Below are positions 1,638 through 56,838 of a DNA stretch of 64,000 bases, one piece after another (positions within the stretch are counted from its first letter, which is position 1; each line of letters opens with the position of its first letter). The translations under genes were made by a program, and so were the position numbers. This DNA is from Tubiluchus corallicola. Taxonomy: Eukaryota > Animalia > Priapulida. A model generated the notes under the pieces. The model saw nothing but the letters and a program-made list of their open reading frames with translations. It was not told where the DNA came from and searched no databases. The stretch is from the NCBI GenBank assembly GCA_030141605.1, contig JAQGDQ010000984.1, forward strand, positions 9,201 through 73,200. The letters are read 5' to 3'.

Positions 1638-1837
1638 TTTAGCTTTGGCTTGAAATTCCGTCTGCTTGGTGGTCTCCTGCATCTTCGACAGTTCCAGAAC
1701 CTCTTTCGCGTTCCGAGACGCCTCCAGTTCCTTTGCGGCCTTGGCGGCCCTCTCCAGCGCGGCCGAATCGAATCTGTACGCCTCCATCTGCGTTTTGGTT
1801 TTCTCATCGAGTTCGCCTAGACGTTTCTTATCCGCAT
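1638..1837 (-). CDS. ATAD3: ATAD3 coding exon 2
   Basis: tttgcag|AT.. gives DADKKRLGELDEKTKTQMEAYRFDSAALERAAKAAKELEASRNAKEVLELSKMQETTKQTEFQAKAK. FDSAALERAAKAAKELE is the ATAD3 signature; donor gtgtgt. Confidence 0.93.
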
Positions 1838-6836: not shown

Positions 6837-7113
6837 TTTAAACGATCCTCAAATAATATTCTAAATTACGTAATTACAGTACTTAAATGGTTAAGTCTTA
6901 GTAACTCCTCTTTTTACAGTACAGCAAGAAACACATGGTCTATAAGACGTTCTCTTGTTTCGACTTGCGCCACCTATTGGAGAAATCCTGTTAAGTTAAT
7001 GTTTTCATTACTGTTTTGTGATTGTGCTAAGTGAAATATTAAAATTTTGTTGTTTTCGTTATTTACTATGCAGTAAATTCACCAAACTGGCTTCCAAAAA
7101 GAGAAATAATGTG
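6837..7113. promoter_or_regulatory. Putative bidirectional promoter shared by ATAD3 and FEM1C, with a CTCF-like/CCAAT motif at 6966-6980
   Basis: Divergent ATGs are separated by 277 bp. Minus-strand CCAATAGGTGGCGCA resembles the CTCF core and contains CCAAT. Confidence 0.6.
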
Positions 7114-7657
7114 ATGGAGTTTAGGAATGTCGTTTATATCGCTGCGCGTGATGGAAAGTTAAGACGACTACGAATTTTCTTGGATCATAGGTCAAGAGAA
7201 GACGTTAAACTTCTTGTTTCAGCAAAAACAGATGACGCAACACCTCTTCTGGCGGCATGTCGGAAAGGCCATTACGAAGTCGCCGAATATCTGGTCAAAG
7301 AATGTGGGGCTGACGTAGAACAAGTGGGGTCCGTGAGTTTTGATAATGAAACAATTGAGGGTGCACCTCCCCTGTGGTGTGCGGCGGCAGCAGGTTATCT
7401 CCCAATAGTTCAGCTTCTACAGCGACATGGCGCATCGGTGAATAGCACAACTTACACAAATTCTACGCCGCTGCGAGCCGCATGTTTTGACGGACACATG
7501 GAAATTGTGAAATACCTGATAAACAACAAGGCAGATATTGAAGTTCCTAATAGACACGGTCATACATGCCTTATGATATCTTGTTACAAAAAACATTACG
7601 AAATTGCACGATACTTGATAAAACTTGGTGCCGATATTAATAGGAAAAGTTTAAAAG
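7114..7657 (+). CDS. FEM1C: Fem-1 homolog (FEM1C/A-like) coding exon 1, ankyrin repeats
   Basis: MEFRNVVYIAARDGKLRRL..GAPPLWCAAAAGY..TNSTPLRAACFDGH..NRHGHTCLMISCYK..KSLK; donor G|gtttga in phase 1. Confidence 0.93.
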
Positions 7658-8259
7658 GTTTGATTCTAATTCATTTTTTTTTGGTTTGTTTTATGTTTTA
7701 ATTGGTTAGTTAAATACTTTACATATTTTCTTAATCATCATTTCATATTTTTCATTTTATTTCTTTGTTGCATAGCTTATTTAGTTATTTCGCTTTCACG
7801 TTTAATGTATTCCCCCATAAATTCATGTGAACAGCAGCACTACAAATTTTTTACAATTTACACTAATCTGAAAAGGGTAGCTGACTCGATGACCTATTGG
7901 TCTTTCGCTACCCTTTCTTCTGCACCCCCCCTCAACTGTTTCCTTTATGCTTAATTTATCCTTTTTAATCAGTAAGTATAAAAATAATAGTCAATTTGTA
8001 TACAGGTGTAAGTGAGGAGATAAATAAAAATGTCTATGTCATTGCTCTTAGCAAGATACAGTCAAACCTTGTTATACGCCAGGTCTGGGACATTGATCGC
8101 TCAATATGGCGGTACAGCGTAGTTCACAGTAAGGCGAGGTTCATGAAATATCAAAGCAATTCCAGTCTTTAACCTCGATTTTGTTTCCTAGTTAATTTTA
8201 ATGTCATAAATAGTACAATATTAGTATACCTACAACAATACGTGTGGATATAACAATCT

Positions 8260-8880
8260 GGGTATATAAAGAATTTAATACCTTAGAAAGGGCATGCTAA
8301 AATATTACAAATCGGCGTTAGGAGTAAAGAGCTCAACACCCACACCAGCTGTCTTGAGGGAATTGGGCAAATATCCCATCAACCTATCAATTAAAATGAG
8401 ACATTAAGTATTGGCTTTGTTTAGTTTCACTGCCAGATAACAAACTGTGCAAGAAAGATTATATTTTGTCTAAACAATATAATGTACCGTAGTATCTAGG
8501 ACTAACAAAAATACTGTCTGATATTAATCTAGTGTTTTTATTAGAAAATGATATAGTGCCATTGTATATGAATACTTTGTATATTGGTGTAGGAAAGTTG
8601 CAAGTATGTTATGTCACCTTTCGGAAAAATGCACTAGCCGAAATATCAAAGTTATCTTTTTACAGTAAATTCAAAACTTCTTTTAAATTTGAATCTTATT
8701 TGTTAAATGTAAAGAATGTTAAAAATCGAAAAACATTGACTAAGCTTAGAACAAGCGCTTACTCAATGCCTATTGTACATTTTTGGTACATTAACAAAAT
8801 TAATGCAGGTGTAGTTCTACGGCAGCACGTTGCAAAACTTTTATGTAACACAATGTGGAATAGCAGATAGATAGATAATT
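8260..8880 (+). mobile_element. Decayed LINE ORF2 C-terminal fragment (RTEX-like)
   Basis: GVKSSTPTPAVLRELGKYPI and SKLSFYSKFKTSFKFESYL..RKTLTKLRTSAYSMPI resemble post-RT motifs of invertebrate RTEX-type elements (recalled, not searched); frames are broken. Confidence 0.65.
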
Positions 8881-8978
8881 TTATTTATCTGTTGTAATAC
8901 ACGCAAAAAAACAATTACATAGCAAAATAAATTGTTAGTATTAGAGAAAGGGTGGCGAAAAAACCCTAGAGGACCCTT

Positions 8979-9669
8979 TTAAGCACAAGAAAACCCTGCA
9001 TAAACATAAAACTTGAAAAATTCGTTTTGAAATTTTATATCGCTTATATACTGCCTTTTTGCGTGCAGGACTTCAATCGGCAGTCACGCTGTATAGAACA
9101 TGTAAATTTAAACTCCCGCGATGACCGTTAGACGCAGCCATTTTCACGACAGGTCATTTGAAACAAGTTTAAATAACATTTTGTAAAGTTTGAAAAAATA
9201 ATCAGAGCATTCGTAGCGCACAAGTCACTAGCTAAATAAAATTTAAAATTACTGTATCTTGTCAATAACATTAAAAATAGGTTTTTTGGTTAGTAAGTGG
9301 TGCACCCTGGAGGGTGAGTCAGCGACATTTTATCAATTGGTGAAAACATTTTAAATAATTAATAATTTTCTTTTCTAGTTACATAAGCCTTTCTAGCAGG
9401 TGAGCAAAATGCTAAGTAATATAACTTTGCATGGAAAGTTTTTAGGGACATAATTTAACATTGCCTTTTCTTCCCTTGATTTATGTTTGGTACACGGCGT
9501 CATGTAATGGCTCTGTCGGAACAGTATTGCCGGAGATTTAAAATGAAAACAAACTAAAATTCCTTTCTGTGCGAGTAAGATATACGCATAAAATTGCTAT
9601 AAAGTAATATAATTTTTTAAGGCGATTTTTCTGAAACCTACTTCAGGTACCCCTTTTCTTGTCCTTTAA
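8979..9669. mobile_element. Kolobok/T2-like MITE, family C (other copies about 35540-36208 and 51530-52002)
   Basis: TTAA-flanked ends ttaagcacaagaaa / tttcttgtcctttaa; body repeated elsewhere in the window. Confidence 0.72.
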
Positions 9670-9841
9670 GTAAGGTTATAACAAGAATATCTTGCGATGA
9701 AATACGCATAAAATGAGTAAATCAAACTGAAATAACACTGTAAAGTGGCTTTATAAACAAATAAAGCAGATTGGTTTGTGCGTGATGTTACAATGACAGG
9801 CAAAAAAAGCAAAAATGAAATTTTTATCAGCATTATTTATT

Positions 9842-10340
9842 CAGGGATGAGAATTTTCTGCGGATACGCGGAATACCGAGTTTTTGGAAGACCAGTAGTG
9901 CCATTTTTTTTAAATTGAGTGAATTCGTTGTGAAAATTTTTACGGACCCAGTACATTATTTCACAAGCTGACCGCTAGTTGGCAGGCCGTCAGTTTGTTT
10001 ACATAACGTACATCAGTGTAATCACGTGTATATCTCTATGTATAATAATATACAATCAGTTGTGCAGAGTTATTTGAGTCAATTGCAGACAGTTTATATA
10101 TACTTTTGCATAGGAGCGGCCAGTACTTAGGCGTTTTTGAGACAATTAGGTATCATGTATCCTTGATAGTTGGGTATTTTAAATTATGCATGAAACAAGG
10201 TAATTGATATTTTAAGTCCGCTTAGAGGCTCTCTATGGTCATCAAAATTGCAATTTGTTGCTTTGCCCCCTTGAACCCCCGCGACCTCCAAACCCCCGGC
10301 CTGTTTCAGAGTTTTTTGCAATTTGTCATTCTCATCCCTG
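9842..10340. mobile_element. CAGGG-terminated MITE, family F (inverted copies about 25630-26123 and 61292-61875)
   Basis: TIRs cagggatgagaat / attctcatccctg; 6-bp direct repeat tttatt on both sides. Confidence 0.8.
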
Positions 10341-10932
10341 TTTATTAGACTCGCTGTTAATAAAATCAGTTGCTTTAATTCATTCAAAAACAGCTGGTAC
10401 GGGTCACTCCTATTCAAATGTATATAAAAACTACTGGCAATTCACTAAAAAAAATCCATGTAATTGACGCAAGATTTTTGTATCAGACATCCATGTAAGT
10501 GTGGTATGTCTATATACGTACAATCATGTTAAAGCAAAACCGGACCCAATCTTAAACTGCAGGTCAAAACAATTTACTCTTTAAAATATTGAAAGGAAAC
10601 GCTATTTTTTTTAAAGAATGACTTACGTGAAAGAATTATTACCACACAAACACAATTTCATGTTCGCGCCACTAGTTTTTCACTGTTACATGCATTTCGC
10701 CATTCTCTAGTTAGACGGGCAGTAGCGCCTGCATTTCGGAAACGCGTTGCAGAAAAACAGATGCTGTACCTCCTAGTTCGGATGTGTTGGTTTGTGACGA
10801 ATTGCACACATTCGGCAGCTCATGCATGAGCACAGCGGTAAATGTGAGTGTTGAATTTTTATGAAAGCTGAATTTTTAATCATTTGCCTAGTGGGGTCCT
10901 GTTGAAACTCCTGCTACTTTTCACAAAAATGT

Positions 10933-11489
10933 TTAACCCTTATAGGGTCACGATTTTTTACAACCAATTTTGGTAACTGGGGGGTAAAAAATTATTTGTG
11001 GTTATGCTGATCACCATAGGATACATTATACCTCTGCTTAAAGTCATGTGACTTACTAGTAATGCGAAATTTAAATTCACTTAGTTACGTTCCCTTATCT
11101 ATGCTGGAATAAATGTAGACAACCGACATTGTTAGCGCGTGTGTAAAAGTCATTGTTATTTTGAATTTATTGTCTACTACTTTCTTCTTTTAGGTGGAGT
11201 AATTTGAGTAACTGACATTATCAGATACATCGCCCGTATGATGTATAGACAAGCGAAGTAAAGTGACGACAATTTTGAAAAATCGACATATTGCATTTTC
11301 ACTTTTATTTCGTGGTGAGACAATGCACCTAAAATAAATAACTGAAAGTATTTTGTGCAAAAAACATATTTAGAAAAAGTCATAGAAAAGGTTTACTGAG
11401 AAGCGTATGGTAAAAAGGTAAAATGCAAAAAACCGGGCTGGGGGTAATTTTTTACCCCCCCCCCCCCCCGGTGACCCTATAAGGGTTAA
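10933..11489. mobile_element. piggyBac-like MITE (partial copy about 40225-40464)
   Basis: TTAA + cccttatagggtcac ... gtgaccctataaggg + TTAA. Confidence 0.82.
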
Positions 11490-11625
11490 TCAGTAAACTG
11501 TTGCTGTTACACCACCAGGCGGCGCCAGTAATCCACAGGTCAATATTCTTTGCGATTTTTTTACAAGCGTAAATGTCATCGAACATATAAGAGTACAGAG
11601 TTAACTTTGACAAAATAACTTTCAC

Positions 11626-11878
11626 CAGACGGTTTAGTCTAGTGGCAATGCGTCTGCTTTCCGTCTGAGAGGTCGTGAGTTCGAACCAGCGGCCGCGTCG
11701 TACCAAAGACTTTAAAAATGGTACCTGCTGTTGCCCTGCCTGGCACGTGGTATTTAAGGTAAAAGTGGGGTAATAATAGTCTCTGTTATGTAGTTGTAGG
11801 TTATTTACAGTCGGCGATAAAAGCTGACTTTAAATAAATATTATTATTATTATTAATATTATTATTATTATTATTATA
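11626..11878 (+). mobile_element. tRNA-derived SINE
   Basis: A-box tagtctagtgg, B-box gagttcgaacc, core taccaaagactttaaaaatggtacctgctg (resembles the Meta/MESC-type SINE core, from memory) and a (tta)n tail. Confidence 0.7.
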
Positions 11879-12551
11879 GAGAATAAGTGTAAAGATCTAA
11901 CATTTAAAACTTTCGCCACAAGAAATGTGATATTTGCTTGTTTGTAGAGAATCACCTAAGCAAATCCTAGCAAGAAACTGCTTATTCTGAGTTAACCTTT
12001 TTTACATATACATGTATGTTTATAGTGAAACAGTAGGCCTATAGTCTATTATATGCACCATAACTGAATACAAGAAAAGTTAATTACGTAAACGAAAAGT
12101 TCTCGATAAAAATGTCTCATTTTAAGTGAGTCATTAATGTCTAAATAATTAATTTAATTATTTTCTTTTAATTCGTTAGTTTAAACTTTAAAATTAATTA
12201 CTCAAACCTGTTTACATTTGCGTGAGCATTGTGATTCGTCTTTGGCAAAATTTAACATTACGTATGCAAAATGTTCTCAATAAAAATGCTTGATTTTAAG
12301 TGAGTCACTAATGTCTAAATAATTAATTTAATTATTTTCTTTTAATTCATTAGTTTAACTTTTAAAATTGATGACTCTGACCGGTGTGTACTTGTGTGAA
12401 TTTTTTCCCATCCCAAAATGCATTGTATAAGGAGGTTTGACTGTACTTCTATTCTAGTTCAAATATTCAAAATTCTATTTTACTTAAACTTTTAACACCA
12501 AAATACTCACTTAGATTATTGAACAGAGCTACGCAAAAATTCAGTATTGTA

Positions 12552-13485
12552 CAGTCAACCTTTCCTGGATATAAGGGACACCTCCCGACCGGAAAAAACC
12601 GTCTCTTATATCCCATGACCCTTATAGTCGAAGTTGAGTCAGACCGAGGGTGTTCTTAGACCTGTACTTTTCTGTACTTTTACCCGTATTTTTATGGATT
12701 ATTGCTACACACTCAGTGCAAACGGCATGTAGGAAGCTCCTTCAGTAACGCGAGATGTATGTGACTGTAAAAACTGAGCTGTTCGAAGGCCGAGTTTATG
12801 AAAAATTGAGGTTAAAAATCGATCAATTTCACTTGATTTGATAGTGCTATGAGCATATAGTTAATTAAAAAAACCAGATTTAAAATAATTAGTTTGTTTT
12901 GAAATGGCGGTCAGTTATTAAAGTTCAAAAAAATGACTAAGTCCAGTTTGAGCAAAAGGTTAAAAATTGTACTTTTGGCATTCTATTATTTATAACTAAG
13001 GATTCCAAATACAGGCTTTAGTATGTTAGTGTTGTTAAATGGAGTGCATTGCACGAGAAATAATCATATCAAGTCATATGGCAACATAGTATTCGTTTTT
13101 CCAGCATCCAAAATTCATCCAAATGATGTTTTACCTTAACAGGTGTGAAAATGGACCTTTTACAAAAGTGTGCTAACTTGTCAACTTTAGAGTGTTATAA
13201 AAGATGCCAATTCAGCTGATAGTTAATTGTTAATATAATTTTTGGTAGCCCATTGTAGTGTAATTAGATAATCATAAACATTTTGCACCTCCACATTTAC
13301 CTGGGTTTCCATTACGCGGGACCTGAAGATATCATCCCTTATAACCAAAAGTCTCTTATATCTGAGTGCCTTATATACGAAGATTTTTATAAGGAAAACA
13401 GTCACGAAAAATCAGGATCGGTGTTGGTGGTCCCTTATAAGCGAGTGTCCTTTATAAACGAGTACCCTATACCCGAGGTTGACTG
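12552..13485. mobile_element. pogo/Tigger-like non-autonomous element
   Basis: TA + cagtcaacct ... aggttgactg + TA, with subterminal ccttata repeats. Confidence 0.78.
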
Positions 13486-13609
13486 TACTATGAGGTTGTA
13501 CTAGAATGCTGAATACAGTTCTTCAATTCCTGCTGCCGTTTTGTTAAATTGTCGTTTTCACTGTAAGCAAATTAAGTTTCATATTTTTGTATACATGTAG
13601 TACATTGTT

Positions 13610-14842
13610 TATTTGTTTATTTACCAGTTGTTTGTTTATTTTGCTAAATATATTGTTTCATTTCCAGGCAACACTGCAATGCATGTTTACTTTACCAGCT
13701 GTGTTATTTTGCTAAATGTATCGTTTCTTTTCCAGGCAACACTGCAACGCTTGTTCATTTTGCTAAATGTATCGTTTCTTTTCCAGGCAACACTGCAACG
13801 CTTGTTCATTTTGCTAAATGTGTCGTTTCTTTTCTAGGCAACACTGCAACGCTTGTTCATTTTGCTAAATGTATCGTTTCTTTCCCAGGCAACACTGCAA
13901 CGCTTGTTTATTTTACCAGCTCTGTTTATTTTGCTAAACGTATCGTTTCTTTTCCAGGCAACACTGCAATGCTTGTTTATTTTGCTAAATGTATCGTTTC
14001 TTTTCCAGGCAACACTGCAACGCTTGGTTATTTTGCTAAATGTATCGTTTCTTTCCCAGGCAACACTGCAACGCTTGTTTACTTTACCAGCTCTTGTTTA
14101 TTTTGCTAAACGTGTCGTTTCTTTCCCAGGCAACACTGCAATGCTTGTTTACTTTACCAGCTATTTGTTTATTTTGCTAAATGTATCGTTTCTTTGCCAG
14201 GCAACACTGCAACGCTTGGTTATTTTACTAAATGTATCGTTTCTTTCCCAGGCAACACTGCAGTGCTTGTTTACTTTACCAGCTCTTGTTTATTTTGCTA
14301 AACGTGTCGTTTCTTTCCCAGGCAACACTGCAATGCTTGTTTACTTTACCAGCTATTTGTTTATTTTGCTAAACGTGTCGTTTCTTTCCCAGGCAACACT
14401 GCAATGCTTGTTTACTTTACCAGCTATTTGTTTATTTTGCTAAATGTATCGTTTCTTTGCCAGGCAACACTGCAATGCTTGTTTATTTTGCTAAACGTAT
14501 CGTTTCTTTTCCAGGCAACACTGCAACGCTTGGTTATTTTGCTAAATGTATCGTTTCTTTCCCAGGCAACACTGCAGTGCTTGTTTACTTTACCAGCTCT
14601 TGTTTATTTTGCTAAACGTGTCGTTTCTTTCCCAGGCAACACTGCAATGCTTGTTTACTTTACCAGCTATTTGTTTATTTTGCTAAATGTATCGTTTCTT
14701 TGCCAGGCAACACTGCAATGCTTGTTTATTTTGCTAAACGTATTGTTTCATTTCCAGGCGACACTGCAATGTTTGTTTACTTTACAAGTTCTTTGTTTAT
14801 TTTGCTAAATGTATTGTTTATTTTCCAGGCAACACTGCAATG
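13610..14842 (+). repeat. Tandem array (51-nt and 68-71-nt units) of the FEM1C intron/exon 2 junction, 20 acceptor copies
   Basis: Each unit has ttttgctaaa(t/c)g..tttc..ccag|gcaacactgca; 19 copies counted before the real acceptor at 14827-14828. Confidence 0.93.
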
Positions 14843-16186
14843 CACGACTGTGCCGAATCGGGCGCATTGAACATAATGAAATTACTTCTCACTCATGGTG
14901 CTAAGATGAGCCCCGACTCAAACGGAATGACCCCTCTGCTGGCCGCGGCCGTCACGGGACACACGGAAATCGTCGAGTATCTCATCACCCGGCCGGAGAT
15001 CAGCCGACTGGAGCACATCGAGGCGCTGGAGCTGCTCGGCGCCACGTTCGTGGACAAGAAGCGGGACATGTTGGGGGCGCTGCAGTACTGGAAGAGGTCC
15101 ATGGAGGAGAGGTTCTCCGAAGCGGCGCCTCCCATGCCGAAGCCCGTCACCATCTCGCAGATCGGCGCCTACGAGAACGTGCTGGAGGTACAGTCGCTGG
15201 ACCAGCTGGCGGATCTCATCTCCGATCCGGACGAGATGCGGATGCAGGCGCTGTTGGTGCGCGAGCGGATTCTCGGGCCCGCCCACCCGGACACGTCTTA
15301 CTACATCCGCTTTCGGGGAGCCGTCTACGCCGACATGGGCAACTTCCGGAAGTGCATCTCCCTGTGGATGTACGCGCTGGACATGCAACAGCGGCTGCAG
15401 GAACCTCTCGGACCGATGACCCAGAGCTCCTTCCTGTCCTTTGCGGAGCTCTTCTCGTTCATGATGTCCGACACGCGGTTCCACCTCCACGAAAAACCAA
15501 AAGTGGAGTTCGCCGACGTCATGTGCATCTTTCGGAAGAGCGTCACCGAAGTGGAGCGCGGAGCGGAGTACCTGCGAACGATCGTCCCGCCTTCCGCTCG
15601 CGCCGGCAACTGCCCGCTGGAGAAGGACACCGTCCACTTCACGCGAACGGTCATCATCACGCTCCACCTGATCTGCATCCTGTGTCACATCCAGCCGAAC
15701 ATGACGGAGGACGAGGAGCAGGAGATGAAGACGGCCGTCTACAGCTACGTTCACACCGAGCCGCGCGTCCACAACAGCTCCACGCTGCTCCACCTCGCCT
15801 GCAGTCGACAGAGCACCACCGTGGGGAAGTATCCGGTGTGCAAGTTTCCCTCCCTGCCCGTCGTGCAGCTGCTGCTGGAAGTGGGCGGGTCCCCGACCGC
15901 CGTGGACGGCGACGGCAACACCCCCCTCCACGTGGTGGCGAAGAACCACGTCCGCGAGCCGGAGATCATCAAGACTCTGCTGGAAGGCGGAGCTCACGTG
16001 GATACGTGCAATCTTCAGCGGCAGACATTCGTGGATCTTTTGCAACCCGGTACGGTACAAGAGATAGTCTCTCCACTGAGATACATGACATTGCAGTGTC
16101 TGGCTGCCAGACAGGTTAGAAAATACGGCTTACGATACAAAAACACGTTAACTAAGAGGCTAAGCGATTTCGTTGAACTGCATTGA
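14829..16186 (+). CDS. FEM1C: Fem-1 homolog (FEM1C/A-like) coding exon 2 to stop
   Basis: ttttccag|GC AAC ACT GCA ATG CAC completes KG-NTAMHDCAESG. Also contains ALELLGATFVDKKRD, DPDEMRMQALLVRERILGPAHPDTSYYIR and the C-terminal TLQCLAAR (VHL/BC-box) ..FVELH*. The joined CDS is 1902 nt (633 aa). Confidence 0.95.
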
Positions 16187-26683: not shown

Positions 26684-28430
<1,747 letters not shown>

Positions 28431-32379: not shown

Positions 32380-32980
32380 TGTTAGGTTAGGTTAGGTTAC
32401 GTTAGGTTAGGTTATGTTAGGTTGTGTTAGGTTAGGATACATTAGGTTAGGTTAGGATACGTTAGGTTAGGTTAGCATACGTTAGGATAGGTTAGGTTAC
32501 ATTACGTTAGGTTAGGTTAGGTTACGTTACATTACATTAGGTTAGGTTACATTAAGTTAGGTTGGCTTATGTTACATTAGGTTAGGTTAAGTTAGGTTAG
32601 GTTACTTTAGGTTGTGTTAGGTTAGGATACATTAGGTTAGGTTAGGATACGTTAGGTTAGGTTAGCATACGTTAGGATAGGTTAGGTTACATTACGTTAG
32701 GTTAGGTTAGGTTACGTTAGGTTATGTTACATTAGGTTAGGTTAGGTTGGTTTAGGTTAGGTTATGTTAGGTTAGTTGATATTAGGTTAGGTTAGGTTAG
32801 GTTATGTTAGGTTAGGTTACTTTAGGTTACGTTACGTTAGGTTACTTTAGGTTGCATTAGGTTAGGTTTGGTTAGGATACATCAGGTTAGGTTAGGATAT
32901 GTTAGGTCAGGTTAAGTTACGTTAGGATACGTTAGGATTGGTTAGGTTACGTTAGGTTAGGTTAGGTTAGGTTAGGTTAG
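32380..32980 (+). repeat. Degenerate (TTAGG)n pentanucleotide tract
   Basis: gttag runs interleaved with gttac/gttat/attag/gatac variants. Confidence 0.92.
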
Positions 32981-36273: not shown

Positions 36274-36824
36274 CAATCATTTTCAAAAGTTTAAGACCAA
36301 AGTGATTTTTTTCATGAAAATTGACAAAACCATCGTTTAACACGGTTCCATCTAAAAACTATTCATTTATTCTTCTAGAAAATTATACTACAGCATAGTT
36401 TGTATGTTTTTGTCCAAAAATAGTCACAGTCCTTGAACATTTTAGTACTTTGTATGGCCGCCGAAGTTGTCAATCACTGCCTTCATTCTAAGAGGCATAC
36501 TGGAAATTAGGTTTTGGCAGTACTCGGAAGTAATTTCTTTAACCCAAACGTCCTTGATAACTCTTTGCAAGTCTTCAGCACTTGATGGCTGCCTGTCTGC
36601 CATCTTATCCTTCAGTATCTCCGAGAGATTCTCTATCGGATTGAGGTTCTGTATCCACCTGTATGGATAGCGGCAGGCAAATGAGTCACTCATACTCACT
36701 AGACGTCACTGTTTCAAACCACTAGCAGTATGATGCAATCAACAAAGAATCTGATGCAATCAGGCTACAGTATGATGAAAATCCCGAAAACTCGAGCTTG
36801 GTCTTAGACTTTTGCAAATGACTG
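36274..36824 (-). mobile_element. Internally deleted Tc1-family transposon
   Basis: NLNPIENL..ISSMPLRMKAVIDNFGGHTKY (Tc1 transposase C-terminus). TIRs caatcattttcaaaagtttaagacca / tggtcttagacttttgcaaatgactg; TA TSD. Confidence 0.9.
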
Positions 36825-37405: not shown

Positions 37406-37540
37406 CTCTCCGTCGAATTCTATCCACAAATTTGTCCTGAGCAGTTCCATTCGCGGCAGGTTCAGATAAATCGTCTTGAACGAGTCTTCGAACACGTGAG
37501 CGCGACGAACTTTGAAAGCGAATTTATTTGGCGTAGTCGA
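37406..37540 (-). CDS. NEDD4: NEDD4 exon (start of HECT)
   Basis: STTPNKFAFKVRRAHVFEDSFKTIYLNLPRMELLRTNLWIEFDGE; ttacag / gtgggt. Confidence 0.92.
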
Positions 37541-37702
37541 CTGTAAGGAAAAAATAAATGCGATGGCGTAGTTCGACTGTAAGACAAACAAGAGAACGTG
37601 CAACACAATGATTTGAGAATTATGTGATTCAATTTCTTAACTACAGTCATACTACGTAGCCATACATTTACACAACTGTTACAATCTGCTAAAAGAAGAC
37701 TT

Positions 37703-41717: not shown

Positions 41718-42045
41718 CTAGTGAACCAAGAACATTTGAAATATATCGGTAGGGAACCACGAACATTTGCAGCTTAACGGTGTGAACCAAGAACATTTGA
41801 ACTTTATCGGTTCCGAACCAAGACATCTAAAGCATATCGGTATTAATCCAAGAACATTTGAAGCCTATTGGTAGTGAACTAACAACATTTAGAACTTATC
41901 GGTAGTGAACCAAGAGCATATGAATGAAGCACATCGGCAGTGAACCAAAAAAAAATTGAAACTTATCGGCAACAAACCGAAAACATTTGAAACTAACCGG
42001 TACTGGACCAAGAACATTGAAAAAACTTACCGGTAGTGGACCGAG
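41718..42045 (-). repeat. Degenerate about 30-nt repeat (about 10 copies) derived from the donor junction of exon 42031-42180
   Basis: Plus-strand units gaacatttgaaacttatcggtagtgaaccaa align with the real junction gaacattgaaaaaacttaccggtagtggacc. Confidence 0.78.
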
Positions 42046-42180
42046 GTCATTTGTTAATGACCTAGGCCGTTTAAAGCCTTCTTGTTCTGCTTCGTTCAAG
42101 CCAGCGGCAACTTGATCGTGGTGATGATGATGGTGGCGACGACCCACTCTGGGACTCGGCGTGTGTGTTCTGGGGTCATT
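42031..42180 (-). CDS. NEDD4: NEDD4 exon (inter-WW linker)
   Basis: NDPRTHTPSPRVGRRHHHHHHDQVAAGLNEAEQEGFKRPRSLTNDLGPLP; ttcag / gtaagt. Confidence 0.92.
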
Positions 42181-42973: not shown

Positions 42974-43189
42974 CCAAGTCGTCGTCTTCGAATTGTGATC
43001 GATGAAAAAAATTCGACCGTTTTGGGCCATCTGCATCGCCCAGCCGGTGGGGAGCGGTTCCTCTTCCGGATTGGCCATTCCCATTTCCAGCGCCTGCAGT
43101 ATCACGCTCGAGTCCGTCATGGGAACCACAGGGGGCTCTTGCGCAGCCGTAGCTTCTCTGTTTCTAGAATTTTCCACGGAATCGCGAGT
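42974..43189 (-). CDS. NEDD4: NEDD4 exon (second WW domain seen)
   Basis: [40 protein letters not shown]; ttcag / gtacgt. Confidence 0.92.
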
Positions 43190-44889: not shown

Positions 44890-45319
44890 TTAACCCTTTC
44901 GCTACGGAAGCCAGCACACTGCCACCCATGCTTTTCATGCAGGGGACGGAAGGTGGCACACTGCCACCCATGCTCAGCACTAAGCACAGTCAGTCACCCA
45001 GGACTGTTTATTTCACTGTTACAATAATGCAAAAACATTGTAGAAAAGCTTAACAGCCGTGGGATTGGTGTTGCCTCACAACAGGTAATGCTAACCAGCC
45101 AATCAGCGTCTGAAGCCAGGTGCATTCCATAATTCTGTACTGTATGTTATGTTCTCATGCAAAATCACTTGTAGATCGTTGATCAGACGTATGTTTAGTT
45201 GACTGTTCTGCATTCTTATAAAACGATTGCGTATCATGGATTCGTATTGTGTCTTTTGTGAAAACTGGTTTCTAAATAAAAGTGCATGCTTATCTATGAA
45301 GGTGTGTGTGCGTGCGTGC

Positions 45320-45374
<55 letters not shown>

Positions 45375-45488
45375 TTTGCTCCCATGTATGTGATGTCACC
45401 GATAGTTAGGCTAGCCCGCCATTAATTAAGATTTAATCATTAATTTAAGATTTTCTTCAAACCAGCAACTATGTAGTGAAAGGGTTAT
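44890..45488. mobile_element. piggyBac-like MITE whose right end is part of the 64-nt array unit
   Basis: ttaa ccctttcgctac ... gtagtgaaaggg ttat; contains a (GT)n tract at about 45302-45371. Confidence 0.65.
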
Positions 45489-48400
45489 AAATGAGTGAGG
45501 CAAAGAGGTACCTGAGTCGTGAACCTCTGCAACTATGTAGTGAAAGGGTTATAAATGAGTGAGGCAAAGAGGTACCTGAGTCGTGAACCTCTGCAACTAT
45601 GTAGTGAAAGGGTTATAAATGAGAGAAGCAAAGAGGTACCTGAGTCGTGAACCTCTGCAACTACGTAGTGAAAGGGTTATAAATGAGTGAGGCAAAGAGG
45701 TACCTGTGTTGTGAACCTCTGCAACTACGTAGTGAAAGGGTTATAAATGAGTGAGGCAAAGAGGTACCTGAGTCGTGAACCTCTGCAATTATGTAGTGAA
45801 AGGGTTATAAATGCGTGAGGCAAAGAGGTACCTGAGTCGTGAACCTCTCCAACTATGTAGTGAAAGGGTTATAAATGAGTGAGGCAAAGAGGTACCTGTG
45901 TTGTGAACCTCTGCAATTATGTAGTGAAAGGGTTATAAATGAGTGAGGCAAAGAGGTACCTGAGTCGTGAACCTCTCCAACTATGTAGTGAAAGGGTTAT
46001 AAATGAGTGAGGCAAAGAGGTACCTGTGTTGTGAACCTCTGCAACTATGTAGTGAAAGGGTTATAAATGAGTGAGGCAAAGAGGTACCTGTGTTGTGAAC
46101 CTCTGCAATTATGTAGTGTAAGGGTTATAAATGAGTGAGGCAAAGAGGTACCTGTGTTGTGAACCTCTGCAACTATGTAGTGAAAGGCTTATAAATGAGT
46201 GAGGCAAAGAGGTACCTGTGTTGTGAACCTCTGCAATTATGTAGTGAAAGGGTTATAAATGAGTGAGGCAAAGAGGTACCTGTGTTGTGAACCTCTGCAA
46301 TTATGTAGTGAAAGGGTTATAAATGCGTGAGGCAAAGAGGTACCTGTGTTGTGAACCTCTACAACTATGTAGTGAAAGGGTTATAAATGCGTGAGGCAGA
46401 GGTACCTGAGTCGTGAACCTCTGCAACTATGTAGTGAAAGGGTTATAAATGAGTGAGGCAAAGAGGTACCTGTGTTGTGAACCTCTGCAACTATGTAGTG
46501 AAAGGGTTATAAATGAGTGAGGCAAAGAGGTACCTGTGTTGTGAACCTCTGCAATTATGTAGTGAAAGGGTTATAAATGAGTGAGGCAAAGAGGTACCTG
46601 TGTTGTGAACCTCTGCAATTATGTAGTGAAAGGGTTATAAATGAGTGAGGCAAAGAGGTACCTGTGTTGTGAACCTCTGCAACTATGTAGTGAAAGGCTT
46701 ATAAATGAGTGAGGCAAAGAGGTACCTGTGTTGTGAACCTCTGCAACTATGTAGTGAAAGGGTTATAAATGAGTGAGGCAAAGAGGTACCTGTGTTGTGA
46801 ACCTCTGCAATTATGTAGTGAAAGGGTTATAAATGAGTGAGGCAAAGAGGTACCTGTGTTGTGAACCTCTGCAATTATGTAGTGAAAGGGTTATAAATGC
46901 GTGAGGCAAAGAGGTACCTGTGTTGTGAACCTCTACAACTATGTAGTGAAAGGGTTATAAATGCGTGAGGCAGAGGTACCTGAGTCGTGAACCTCTGCAA
47001 CTATGTAGTGAAAGGGTTATAAATGAGTGAGGCAAAGAGGTACCTGTGTTGTGAACCTCTGCAACTATGTAGTGAAAGGGTTATAAATGAGTGAGGCAAA
47101 GAGGTACCTGTGTTGTGAACCTCTGCAATTATGTAGTGAAAGGGTTATAAATGAGTGAGGCAAAGAGGTACCTGTGTTGTGAACCTCTGCAACTATGTAG
47201 TGAAAGGCTTATAAATGAGTGAGGCAAAGAGGTAAATGTGTTGTGAACCTCTGCAATTATGTAGTGAAAGGGTTATAAATGAGTGAGGCAAAGAGGTACC
47301 TGTGTTGTGAACCTCTGCAATTATGTAGTGAAAGGGTTATAAATGCGTGAGGCAAAGAGGTACCTGTGTTGTGAACCTCTACAACTATGTAGTGAAAGGG
47401 TTATAAATGCGTGAGGCAGAGGTACCTGAGTCGTGAACCTCTGCAACTATGTAGTGAAAGGGTTATAAATGAGTGAGGCAAAGAGGTACCTGTGTTGTGA
47501 ACCTCTCCAACTATGTAGTGAAAGGGTTATAAATGCGTGAGGCAAAGAGGTACCTGTGTTGTGAACCTCTGCAACTATGTAGTGAAAGGATTATAAATGC
47601 GTGAGGCAAAGAGGTACCTGAGTCGTGAACCTCTGCAATTATGTAGTGAAAGGGTTATAAATGCGTGAGGCAAAGAGGTACCTGTGTTGTGAACCTCTCC
47701 AATTATGTAGTGAAAGGGTTATAAATGCGTGAGGCAAAGAGGTACCTGTGTTGTGAACCTCTGCAATTATGTAGTGAAAGGGTTATAAATGAGTGAGGCA
47801 AAGAGGTACCTGTGTTGTGAACCTCTGCAACTATGTAGTGACAGGCTTATAAATGAGTGAGGCAAAGAGGTAAATGTGTTGTGAACCTCTGCAATTATGT
47901 AGTGAAAGGGTTATAAATGAGTGAGGCAAAGAGGTACCTGTGTTGTGAACCTCTGCAATTATGTAGTGAAAGGGTTATAAATGCGTGAGGCAAAGAGGTA
48001 CCTGTGTTGTGAACCTCTACAACTATGTAGCGCAAGGGTTATAAATGCGTGAGGCAGAGGTACCTGAGTCGTGAACCTCTGCAACTATGTAGTGAAAGGG
48101 TTATAAATGAGTGAGGCAAAGAGGTACCTGTGTTGTGAACCTCTCCAACTATGTAGTGAAAGGGTTATAAATGCGTGAGGCAAAGAGGTACCTGTGTTGT
48201 GAACCTCTGCAACTATGTAGTGAAAGGGTTATAAATGCGTGAGGCAAAGAGGTACCTGAGTCGTGAACCTCTGCAATTATGTAGTGAAAGGGTTATAAAT
48301 GCGTGAGGCAAAGAGGTACCTGTGTTGTGAACCTCTCCAATTATGTAGTGAAAGGGTTATAAATGCGTGAGGCAAAGAGGTACCTGTGTTGTGAACCTCT

Positions 48401-50186
48401 GCAATTATGTAGTGAAAGGGTTATAAATGAGTGAGGCAAAGAGGTACCTGTGTTGTGAACCTCTCCAACTATGTAGTGAAAGGGTTATAAATGCGTGAGG
48501 CAAAGAGGTACCTGTGTCGTGAACCTCTGCAACTATGTAGTGAAAGGGTTATAAATGAGTGAGGCAAAGAGGTACCTGAGTCGTGAACCTCTGCAACTAT
48601 GTAGTGAAAGGGTTATAAATGAGTGAGGCAAACAGGTTCCTGAGTCGTGAACCTCTACAACTATGTAGTGAAAGGGTTATACATGAGTGAGGCAAAGAGG
48701 TACCTGAGTCGTGAACCTCTCCAACTATGTAGTGAAAGGGTTATAAATGAGTGTGGCAAAGAGGTACCTGAGTCGTGAACCTCTGCAATTATGTAGTGAA
48801 AGGGTTATAAATGAGTGAGGCAAAGAGGTACCTGTGTTGTGAACCTCTCCAACTATGTAGTGAAAGGGTTATAAATGCGTGAGGCAAAGAGGTACCTGTG
48901 TTGTGAACCTCTGCAACTATGTAGTGAAAGGATTATAAATGCGTGAGGCAAAGAGGTACCTGAGTCGTGAACCTCTGCAATTATGTAGTGAAAGGGTTAT
49001 AAATGCGTGAGGCAAAGAGGTACCTGTGTTGTGAACCTCTCCAATTATGTAGTGAAAGGGTTATAAATGCGTGAGGCAAAGAGGTACCTGTGTTGTGAAC
49101 CTCTGCAATTATGTAGTGAAAGGGTTATAAATGAGTGAGGCAAAGAGGTACCTGTGTTGTGAACCTCTGCAACTATGTAGTGAAAGGCTTATAAATGAGT
49201 GAGGCAAAGAGGTAAATGTGTTGTGAACCTCTGCAATTATGTAGTGAAAGGGTTATAAATGAGTGAGGCAAAGAGGTACCTGTGTTGTGAACCTCTGCAA
49301 TTATGTAGTGAAAGGGTTATAAATGCGTGAGGCAAAGAGGTACCTGTGTTGTGAACCTCTACAACTATGTAGCGCAAGGGTTATAAATGCGTGAGGCAGA
49401 GGTACCTGAGTCGTGAACCTCTGCAACTATGTAGTGAAAGGGTTATAAATGAGTGAGGCAAAGAGGTACCTGTGTTGTGAACCTCTCCAACTATGTAGTG
49501 AAAGGGTTATAAATGCGTGAGGCAAAGAGGTACCTGTGTTGTGAACCTCTGCAACTATGTAGTGAAAGGGTTATAAATGCGTGAGGCAAAGAGGTACCTG
49601 AGTCGTGAACCTCTGCAATTATGTAGTGAAAGGGTTATAAATGCGTGAGGCAAAGAGGTACCTGTGTTGTGAACCTCTCCAATTATGTAGTGAAAGGGTT
49701 ATAAATGCGTGAGGCAAAGAGGTACCTGTGTTGTGAACCTCTGCAATTATGTAGTGAAAGGGTTATAAATGAGTGAGGCAAAGAGGTACCTGTGTTGTGA
49801 ACCTCTCCAACTATGTAGTGAAAGGGTTATAAATGCGTGAGGCAAAGAGGTACCTGTGTCGTGAACCTCTGCAACTATGTAGTGAAAGGGTTATAAATGA
49901 GTGAGGCAAAGAGGTACCTGTGTTGTGAACCTCTCCAACTATGTAGTGAAAGGGTTATAAATGAGTGAGGCAAAGAGGTACCTGTGTTGTGAACCTCTCC
50001 AACTATGTAGTGAAAGGGTTATAAATGCGTGAGGCAAAGAGGTACCTGTGTCGTGAACCTCTGCAACTATGTAGTGAAAGGGTTATAAATGAGTGAGGCA
50101 AAGAGGTACCTGAGTCGTGAACCTCTGCAACTACGTAGTGAAAGGGTTATAAATGAGTGAGGCAAAGAGGTACCTGAGTCGTGAAC
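45466..50186 (-). repeat. 64-nt minisatellite (about 74 copies) containing the donor junction of NEDD4 exon 50174-50354
   Basis: Sense unit gtacctctttgcctcactcatttataaccctttcactacatagttgcag-aggttcacgactcag; the array runs directly into the exon end. Confidence 0.95.
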
Positions 50187-50354
50187 ACTTCATCTCCTCC
50201 GGCTCTCATGTTAAGTCCGGAACCAAAAGAGAACCGCATCTGATCGGCCGAATCGTCCTGGCTGATATGCCTGCGCTGTCGAAATTCCATGGCGGCCGCT
50301 GCTTCCGCACGACGCTGCGTGGCGGCGCCACCAGACGGGGTTGAATTCGAAGCC
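50174..50354 (-). CDS. NEDD4: NEDD4 exon (linker after WW1)
   Basis: ASNSTPSGGAATQRRAEAAAAMEFRQRRHISQDDSADQMRFSFGSGLNMRAGGDEVFTTQ (the FxxRRHIS motif of the NEDD4 linker); ttttag / gtacct; phases fit both neighbours. Confidence 0.88.
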
Positions 50355-56444: not shown

Positions 56445-56797
56445 GTTTTCGCATCACAACCGAAACGGTTAACTGAAACGGTTCACTCAAACTAATTTCA
56501 CGCAAAGATCTTACAATTCTAAATGTCTTACCAATCTATTTTCGCAACACAACCGAAACGGTTCACTCAAACTGATTTCGCGCAAAGATCTTACAATTCT
56601 AAATGTCTTACCAATCTATTTTCGCAACACAACCGAAACGGTTCACTCAAACTGATTTCGCGCAAAGATCTTATAACTCTAAACGTCTTACCAATCTGTT
56701 TTCGCATCAGAACCAAAACGGTTAACTGAAACGGTTCACTCAAACTGATTTCGCGCACAGATCTTATAACTCTAAATGTCTTACCAATCTATTTTCG
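56445..56797 (-). repeat. 80-93-nt repeat carrying three extra copies of the donor of exon 56785-56838
   Basis: tcttaccaatct(a/g)ttttcg near 56526, 56606, 56686 and at the real junction near 56779. Confidence 0.9.
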
Positions 56798-56838
56798 TCG
56801 AAAACTTCGAAAAGCAACCGATTCTTGTCGGGTATGAC
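56785..56838 (-). CDS. NEDD4: NEDD4 C2 exon
   Basis: VIPDKNRLLFEVFDENRL; tccag / gtaaga. Confidence 0.93.

Follow-up and report, generated by a model that had tools for sequence, protein, structure and literature searches.

A 74-copy minisatellite repeating a NEDD4 splice donor in the priapulid Tubiluchus corallicola carries microexon-like units that are probably silent

A 64,000-nucleotide stretch of the Tubiluchus corallicola (Priapulida) genome (assembly GCA_030141605.1, contig JAQGDQ010000984.1, positions 9,201 to 73,200), hereafter the window, harbors a gene for a NEDD4-type E3 ubiquitin ligase, and the intron between its first and second WW domains (WW1 and WW2) contains a large 64-bp minisatellite (45465..50186, minus strand). 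Minisatellites with a first unit lying across an exon-intron boundary constitute a described class, of which this array is a new member. We consider it probable that the array is an intronic, donor-repeating minisatellite, with a unit spanning the exon-intron boundary, that is likely silent: the messenger RNA would be spliced from the first donor, at 50174, directly to 43189, passing over 73 microexon-like pieces as unspliced decoys.

Tandem Repeats Finder recovers the minisatellite as one array of period 64, with 73.9 copies and 95% matches, and the 64-nt repeat itself is far beyond chance. Cutting the array at each donor yields 74 donor-start units on the minus strand, 73 of them complete with a 15-mer, in line with the approximately 74 tandem units of 49 nt plus 15 nt that had been proposed in an initial annotation of this DNA. 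Five units are 62 nt long, with a 47-nt spacer, compared with the standard 49 + 15 nt. The units fall into 26 types, ordered as higher-order blocks, with an 11-unit run recurring at lag 21, whereas the longest repeated run in 300 shuffles was 4. Tandem repeats in general occupy approximately 27% of the non-exonic positions of the window.

The anatomy of the unit reveals its sources. Positions 1-47 of the first unit (50127..50173, minus strand) are the original start of the intron, comprising 27 nt from the donor and 20 nt of the end of a transposable element, and they coincide with the last partial unit (45511-45465), which continues into a 599-bp element. Positions 52-64 are the final 13 nt of the real exon. 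The four nucleotides in between (AGAG, positions 48-51; 50123..50126, minus strand) are absent from both the original intron and the exon and thus mark the duplication seam. This seam completes a CAG, thereby supplying both the AG of an acceptor and the start (two bases) of an Arg codon, so that the "microexon" consists of exon tail plus seam: in the first 15-nt piece (RFTTQ; 50110..50124, minus strand), the last 13 nt copy the exon tail at 50186-50174. RFTTQ echoes the VFTTQ of the real exon because that tail was copied, and the echo is no separate sign of function. The 15-nt exon-like pieces, which would indeed be in frame if spliced in, as initially annotated, probably arose as a side effect of the duplication seam and stay silent, like comparable repeats in lancelet and human genes.

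The element into which the array continues (44890..45488, strand unassigned) is flanked by ATAA on the left and TTAA on the right, and presents 12-bp inverted ends, starting with CCCT, that match at 11 of 12 positions. PiggyBac-like miniature inverted-repeat transposable elements are defined by duplication of a TTAA target and by short inverted ends that begin with CCC; by end motif only, the element is a putative member of this group. The presence of a TTAA/CCCT element end within the unit agrees with the initial annotation, and the succession of intron start, seam and exon tail supports its proposal that the unit arose via tandem duplication across the exon end and a piggyBac-like element end. 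The sequence of events would have begun with insertion of a TTAA/CCCT element 27 nt into the intron, followed by duplication of 60 bp across the donor, in which the 4-nt seam would by chance have completed the CAG and the in-frame 15-mer; unequal exchange would then have amplified single units and blocks of approximately 10 and 21 units. Across the whole window we also observed 12 TTAACCCT/AGGGTTAA ends, suggesting the presence of several piggyBac-like non-autonomous elements.

The host gene is intact if the array is passed over. Using tblastn with two NEDD4 relatives, together with boundary calling, we delineated 21 NEDD4 exons (62066 to 25416) that, given a direct join of 50174 to 43189, form a single open frame of 811 codons with the domain order C2-WW-WW-WW-HECT. 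In the resulting protein this join corresponds to residue 264, which separates WW1 from WW2. The upstream exon (50174..50354, minus strand; 181 nt) encodes the linker after WW1 and ends in EVFTTQ, and its donor, CAG/GTACCT, is the first array copy; the next exon (42974..43189, minus strand; 216 nt) encodes WW2, and the direct join leaves the frame uninterrupted. Both flanking exons and the phase 0 of the intron are as the initial annotation described them. The 20 NEDD4 introns in the window span 357-6984 nt (median 1281), the array-bearing intron measuring 6984 nt, or approximately 2.3 kb minus the array. Read-through of the first donor encounters an in-frame TAA (50147..50149, minus strand) after eight codons (VPLCLTHL*), and use of a downstream donor without internal splicing would hence give a premature stop. 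The real exon (50174-50354) does show constraint, since all five of its differences from a sequencing run, X1, are third-position synonymous changes.

Judged by its sequence, the array displays three features of the mirage class, so named in amphioxus. Its unit spans the exon-intron boundary, with 13 nt of exon and 47 nt of intron, and the first unit is the real junction; splice signals are partially retained, with the donor GT kept in 69 of the 73 copied donors and broken in four; and the recurrence of the 11-unit run at lag 21 conforms to unequal exchange and concerted evolution. Exclusive or predominant use of the first donor would be expected by analogy with amphioxus and with human F7. 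The amphioxus mirages reported in Adh3 and in the globins BflGb6 and BflGb9 lie at both boundaries and leave splicing undisturbed by reverse-transcription PCR (PMC3087553), and, according to the account of human donor-reiterating minisatellites in PMC1557585, the first donor alone is used in F7, LMNB2 and PDGF, whereas two more are used in IFI6 and CBS.

The last two human cases weigh against complete silence, and they are consistent with a leaky array, in which a few percent of transcripts would either use a downstream donor, acquiring 64n extra bases, an early stop and likely nonsense-mediated decay, or include one RFTTQ microexon by way of introns of at least 113 nt. The copied donors match the real donor at +1 to +6 in nearly all units, the array acceptor scores 5.9-6.7 bits and the TAA at 50149-50147 would provide the stop, but F7, LMNB2 and PDGF rely exclusively on the first of their donors (PMC1557585), and splicing proceeds normally across amphioxus mirages (PMC3087553). 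The NEDD4 gene, moreover, is intact, and its array has lasted long enough to develop higher-order blocks. On balance we deem such leakage unlikely; were it to occur, copy number would slightly tune NEDD4 output, with no selected function.

Further observations count against a silent array. On splice-site matrices derived solely from sites in this window (23 acceptors, 22 donors), the array CAG outscores 8 of the 23 real acceptors in leave-one-out comparison, in support of the initial view that the acceptor is plausible, and its score is reached by 48 of 1859 intronic AGs. It is also higher than the 3.5 bits that the true downstream acceptor receives in leave-one-out scoring (7.6 bits when the full matrix is used), and, as noted above, 69 of the 73 copied donors retain GT. 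Among 22000 simulated donor duplications, spread over the 22 donors of the window, an in-frame YAG microexon of any strength arose in 4147 (19%), a point in favor of a silent array, but an in-frame acceptor of array strength arose in just 434 (2%). This is the best evidence for the initial annotation, and it is weakened by the post hoc choice of the finding from a large scan. Non-adjacent units, moreover, allow introns of 113, 177, 241 nt and up, which removes the objection of a 49-nt intron for single microexon inclusions, and both high-frequency variants of the 15-mer are synonymous (2/2, P = 0.05 unweighted).

These points bear on the possibility that the array is a mirage in the course of becoming exons. 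The seam and the pyrimidine-rich transposon end would together form a working acceptor, transcripts in some tissue would include one or several RFTTQ microexons via skip-over introns of at least 113 nt, and copy number and unit type would set the spacing between WW1 and WW2. We regard this scenario as decidedly improbable; if true, it would directly demonstrate that mirages can give rise to new exons and introns. Intron gain in progress, as initially suggested, does match a model published for repeats of this kind (PMC3087553), but no sign of gain taking place is seen here.

A functional microexon ladder, in which regulated and variable inclusion of RFTTQ would lengthen the WW1-WW2 linker in the manner of Schistosoma mansoni SmPoMuc or of neural eMIC microexons, appears very unlikely. 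The 15-mer keeps the frame, a YAG and a GT occur together in 54 of 73 cassettes, the two common variants are synonymous, a comparably good in-frame acceptor has the 2% chance given above, and the insertion point at residue 264 lies between two WW domains. Inclusion of adjacent units, however, requires introns of 47-49 nt, and the gene minimum is 357 nt; introns below 65 nt are rare exceptions in human (PMC4463651). The ladder of 49-nt introns that had been envisaged thus fails on length. The traits reported for eMIC-dependent microexons are a long AG-free zone, a strong CUAAY branch point, a UCUC-rich tract and UGC near the 3' site (bioRxiv 2021.02.24.432780). Within the array unit, only the last of these was found: TGC, a motif enriched near eMIC exons, directly precedes the array AG, but there is no CTAAY, a single CTCT occurs per unit and no long AG-free zone is present, another AG lying 6 nt upstream in most units. 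The best branch-like motifs are situated 13-21 nt from the donor, with TTCAC at 32-36. In SmPoMuc, furthermore, a 27-nt exon is found per approximately 1 kb of repeat (PMC2576457).

Variation among the units points in the same direction, with no depletion of variants detected and 19 of 73 cassettes broken. Among the 73 15-mers, 47 read ACA-ACA-CAG, 20 ACG-ACT-CAG and 3 ACG-ACA-CAG, all encoding RFTTQ, and 3 read ACA-ACA-CAT (RFTTH). The three RFTTQ versions that had been listed as common therefore exist, but the third is rare, equaling RFTTH in number. The acceptor triplets comprise 52 CAG, 15 GAG and 6 TAG; TAG is an ordinary acceptor in NEDD4, which leaves GAG as the sole acceptor break. The minority units with a broken donor or altered acceptor were hence correctly identified in the case of the four broken donors and of GAG, but not in that of TAG, which is usable. 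The acceptor-breaking GAG has spread to 15 copies. Variable sites number 3 of 15 in the 15-mer and 15 of 49 in the spacer (Fisher p = 0.53, with three variant alleles and little power). Synonymous changes make up 10 of the 45 possible for the 15-mer, and the probability that both frequent variants are synonymous rises to P = 0.09 with CpG and transition weights of our own choosing; when the CAT allele is included, that of at least two synonymous alleles in three is P = 0.13-0.22, again with little power for three alleles. The CAT change co-occurs with a broken donor and is compatible with either reading. The synonymy of the variants is not beyond chance, and selection on the RFTTQ peptide is not detectable. 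If inclusion does occur, the locus would represent a minisatellite encoding a variable linker in an E3 ligase.

Recursive splicing, with the intron removed stepwise at an AG/GT ratchet point in each unit, had likewise been put forward. At a recursive ratchet point, a usable donor begins immediately after a usable acceptor (PMC8605326). The unit contains two AG/GT motifs, one of which would regenerate a good donor (7.8 bits), but its AG reaches no more than -2.5 to -3.1 on the acceptor matrix. For the second motif, the values are -10 to -12 (acceptor) and -3.0 (donor). Neither combines the two, and the intron to be removed spans 6984 nt, approximately 2.3 kb without the array. On these splice-site scores we rejected the recursive ladder, which we hold to be extremely unlikely.

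A search for sequencing reads found no RNA run, a blank that carries no evidence on expression, and a single run of unrecorded kind, X1. This run behaves as DNA, presenting an unspliced contig over both exon ends and intronic repeats at high depth. Its summed contig depth is 53-207 for the unit versus 7.7 for the exon, a depth that is not a copy number, and the GAG variant appears at depth 26 of 114, close to the 15 of 73 seen in the window. In the X1 contigs, the seam is bridged by 26 letters on one side and 31 on the other, which falls below a 31-letter threshold. Given this, and because it may be the window's own sample, X1 lends modest support to the reality of the array and says nothing on splicing. 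Copy number in the mirage class varies between alleles, and the unit-to-exon depth ratio in X1 is below that for 74 copies, as might also be seen if the array or its length were made by the assembler; the 26 unit types in ordered higher-order blocks argue against such an artifact, as does the fact that X1 also contains the unit, together with its seam and the GAG variant, and we give an assembly origin a minimal chance. At 50174-50300, X1 and the window present five synonymous differences in approximately 42 codons, and the array units match within array variation. This would indicate that X1 represents a second, strongly diverged haplotype or else a closely related sister lineage.

Homology searches were also conducted for relatives showing the junction. 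A protein search with the linker exon returned no matches among 179 candidates, and one with the WW2 exon returned 11 distant WW proteins among 33 candidates. A search of 1.84 billion protein representatives for a junction-showing relative produced 2 unrelated matches only, and 599 pattern matches in metagenome contigs included no confirmed locus.

Five further splice-junction duplications were identified in the window. An objective scan detected recent junction-spanning copies at 3 of 45 splice sites, namely the array donor, NEDD4 donor 56785 and FEM1 acceptor 14829, whereas 2.5 would be expected from repeat edges elsewhere (p = 0.46), and we accordingly rejected an enrichment of junction-spanning arrays at splice sites. 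Three older or shorter cases, below the scan threshold, were found by eye at NEDD4 donor 42031 and NEDD4 acceptors 26869 and 37540. The array at donor 56785 (56471-56800, minus strand) repeats 80 bp in 3 copies with GT intact, and inspection revealed no in-frame microexon in it. The older junction arrays have lost their splice signals. In the old 31-bp array of ten copies that starts at donor 42031 (41719-42046, minus strand), GT has mostly decayed to AT, and in the 51-bp array of 30 copies derived from acceptor 26869 (26885-28430, minus strand), the acceptor context has decayed to AAG or GAG, with 0 copies of the real CAGCTG; units of the latter can nonetheless be read through 475 codons without a stop, in a frame that matches the phase of the exon. 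At 37540-37580 (minus strand), a two-copy 34-bp duplication of a NEDD4 acceptor and exon start yields an additional CAG, which stands 34 nt further upstream and in a different reading frame.

The FEM1 case is an acceptor-side mirage, in which a 51/70-bp array (13614-14843, plus strand) repeats the acceptor of the last FEM1 exon together with the 13-16 nt with which that exon begins. In this array, 19 copies keep YAG/GC(A/G)ACAC, and the 51-bp units are in frame and stop-free. In P0012, a 93% FEM1 relative whose sequence probably derives from a spliced transcript, this junction is joined without insert, a control that is weak because P0012 may lack the array. The FEM1 gene (7000-16186, plus strand) has two exons and a 7171-nt intron and adjoins the NEDD4 3' end; the best named match of its protein is that of Priapulus caudatus, at 62%. 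Also near the NEDD4 3' end, an exon at 1638-1837 (minus strand) resembles what we presume, from its peptide, to be ATAD3. Within NEDD4 introns, we observed a 600-bp GTTAG-type repeat (32381-32980), presumably matching the arthropod-type telomere motif TTAGG, and a short open reading frame (36442-36705, minus strand) with an end that resembles what we take to be a Tc1/mariner transposase C-terminus.

A literature search, encompassing few subscription papers and no supplements, found the class described and nothing on this locus. On the most likely reading, the array is a large example within this class (74 copies); it offers a natural setting in which to examine how an invertebrate selects the first donor, and it could easily mislead gene annotation. 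It is unusual in one respect only, namely that every unit combines the donor with a plausible acceptor, so that transcripts could directly test the mirage model for the birth of exons and introns. The amphioxus mirages, which were proposed as a route to intron gain, number 3-6 copies in BflGb6, compared with 74 here (PMC3087553); as described in that source, they further differ from the NEDD4 array in that the unit of the latter includes a transposon end and in that its seam adds an acceptor, each unit thereby resembling a whole intron plus a microexon.

The human minisatellites comprise those of F7 intervening sequence 7 (IVS7; 37 bp), IFI6/6-16, CBS IVS13, LMNB2 (100 bp) and PDGF intron 4 (81 bp), F7 being the one studied in PMC1557585 and the others being cited there. 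As in NEDD4, their first unit crosses the exon-intron boundary and the donor is repeated down the intron, so that later donors add intron sequence. They differ in having 5-25 copies, compared with 74, and in that their splicing was measured, whereas the NEDD4 array is known from sequence alone; the portions of PMC1557585 devoted to them describe no microexon-like piece. In exon 2 of SmPoMuc, a 27-nt exon lies in units of approximately 1 kb and gives rise to a variable peptide repeat in complementary DNA (PMC2576457). The NEDD4 array shares with it the tandem genomic repetition of a small frame-preserving exon with flanking intron, and concerted evolution, but has spacers of 47-49 nt and units known from the genome. 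In the intron-gain model of Rogers, as outlined in PMC3443670, an exonic segment with AGGT is duplicated in tandem. Here too, tandem duplication makes new donor-acceptor pairs, but the existing donor was duplicated and the acceptor came from the seam, so that the outcome would be the gain of a microexon and not a precise intron gain.

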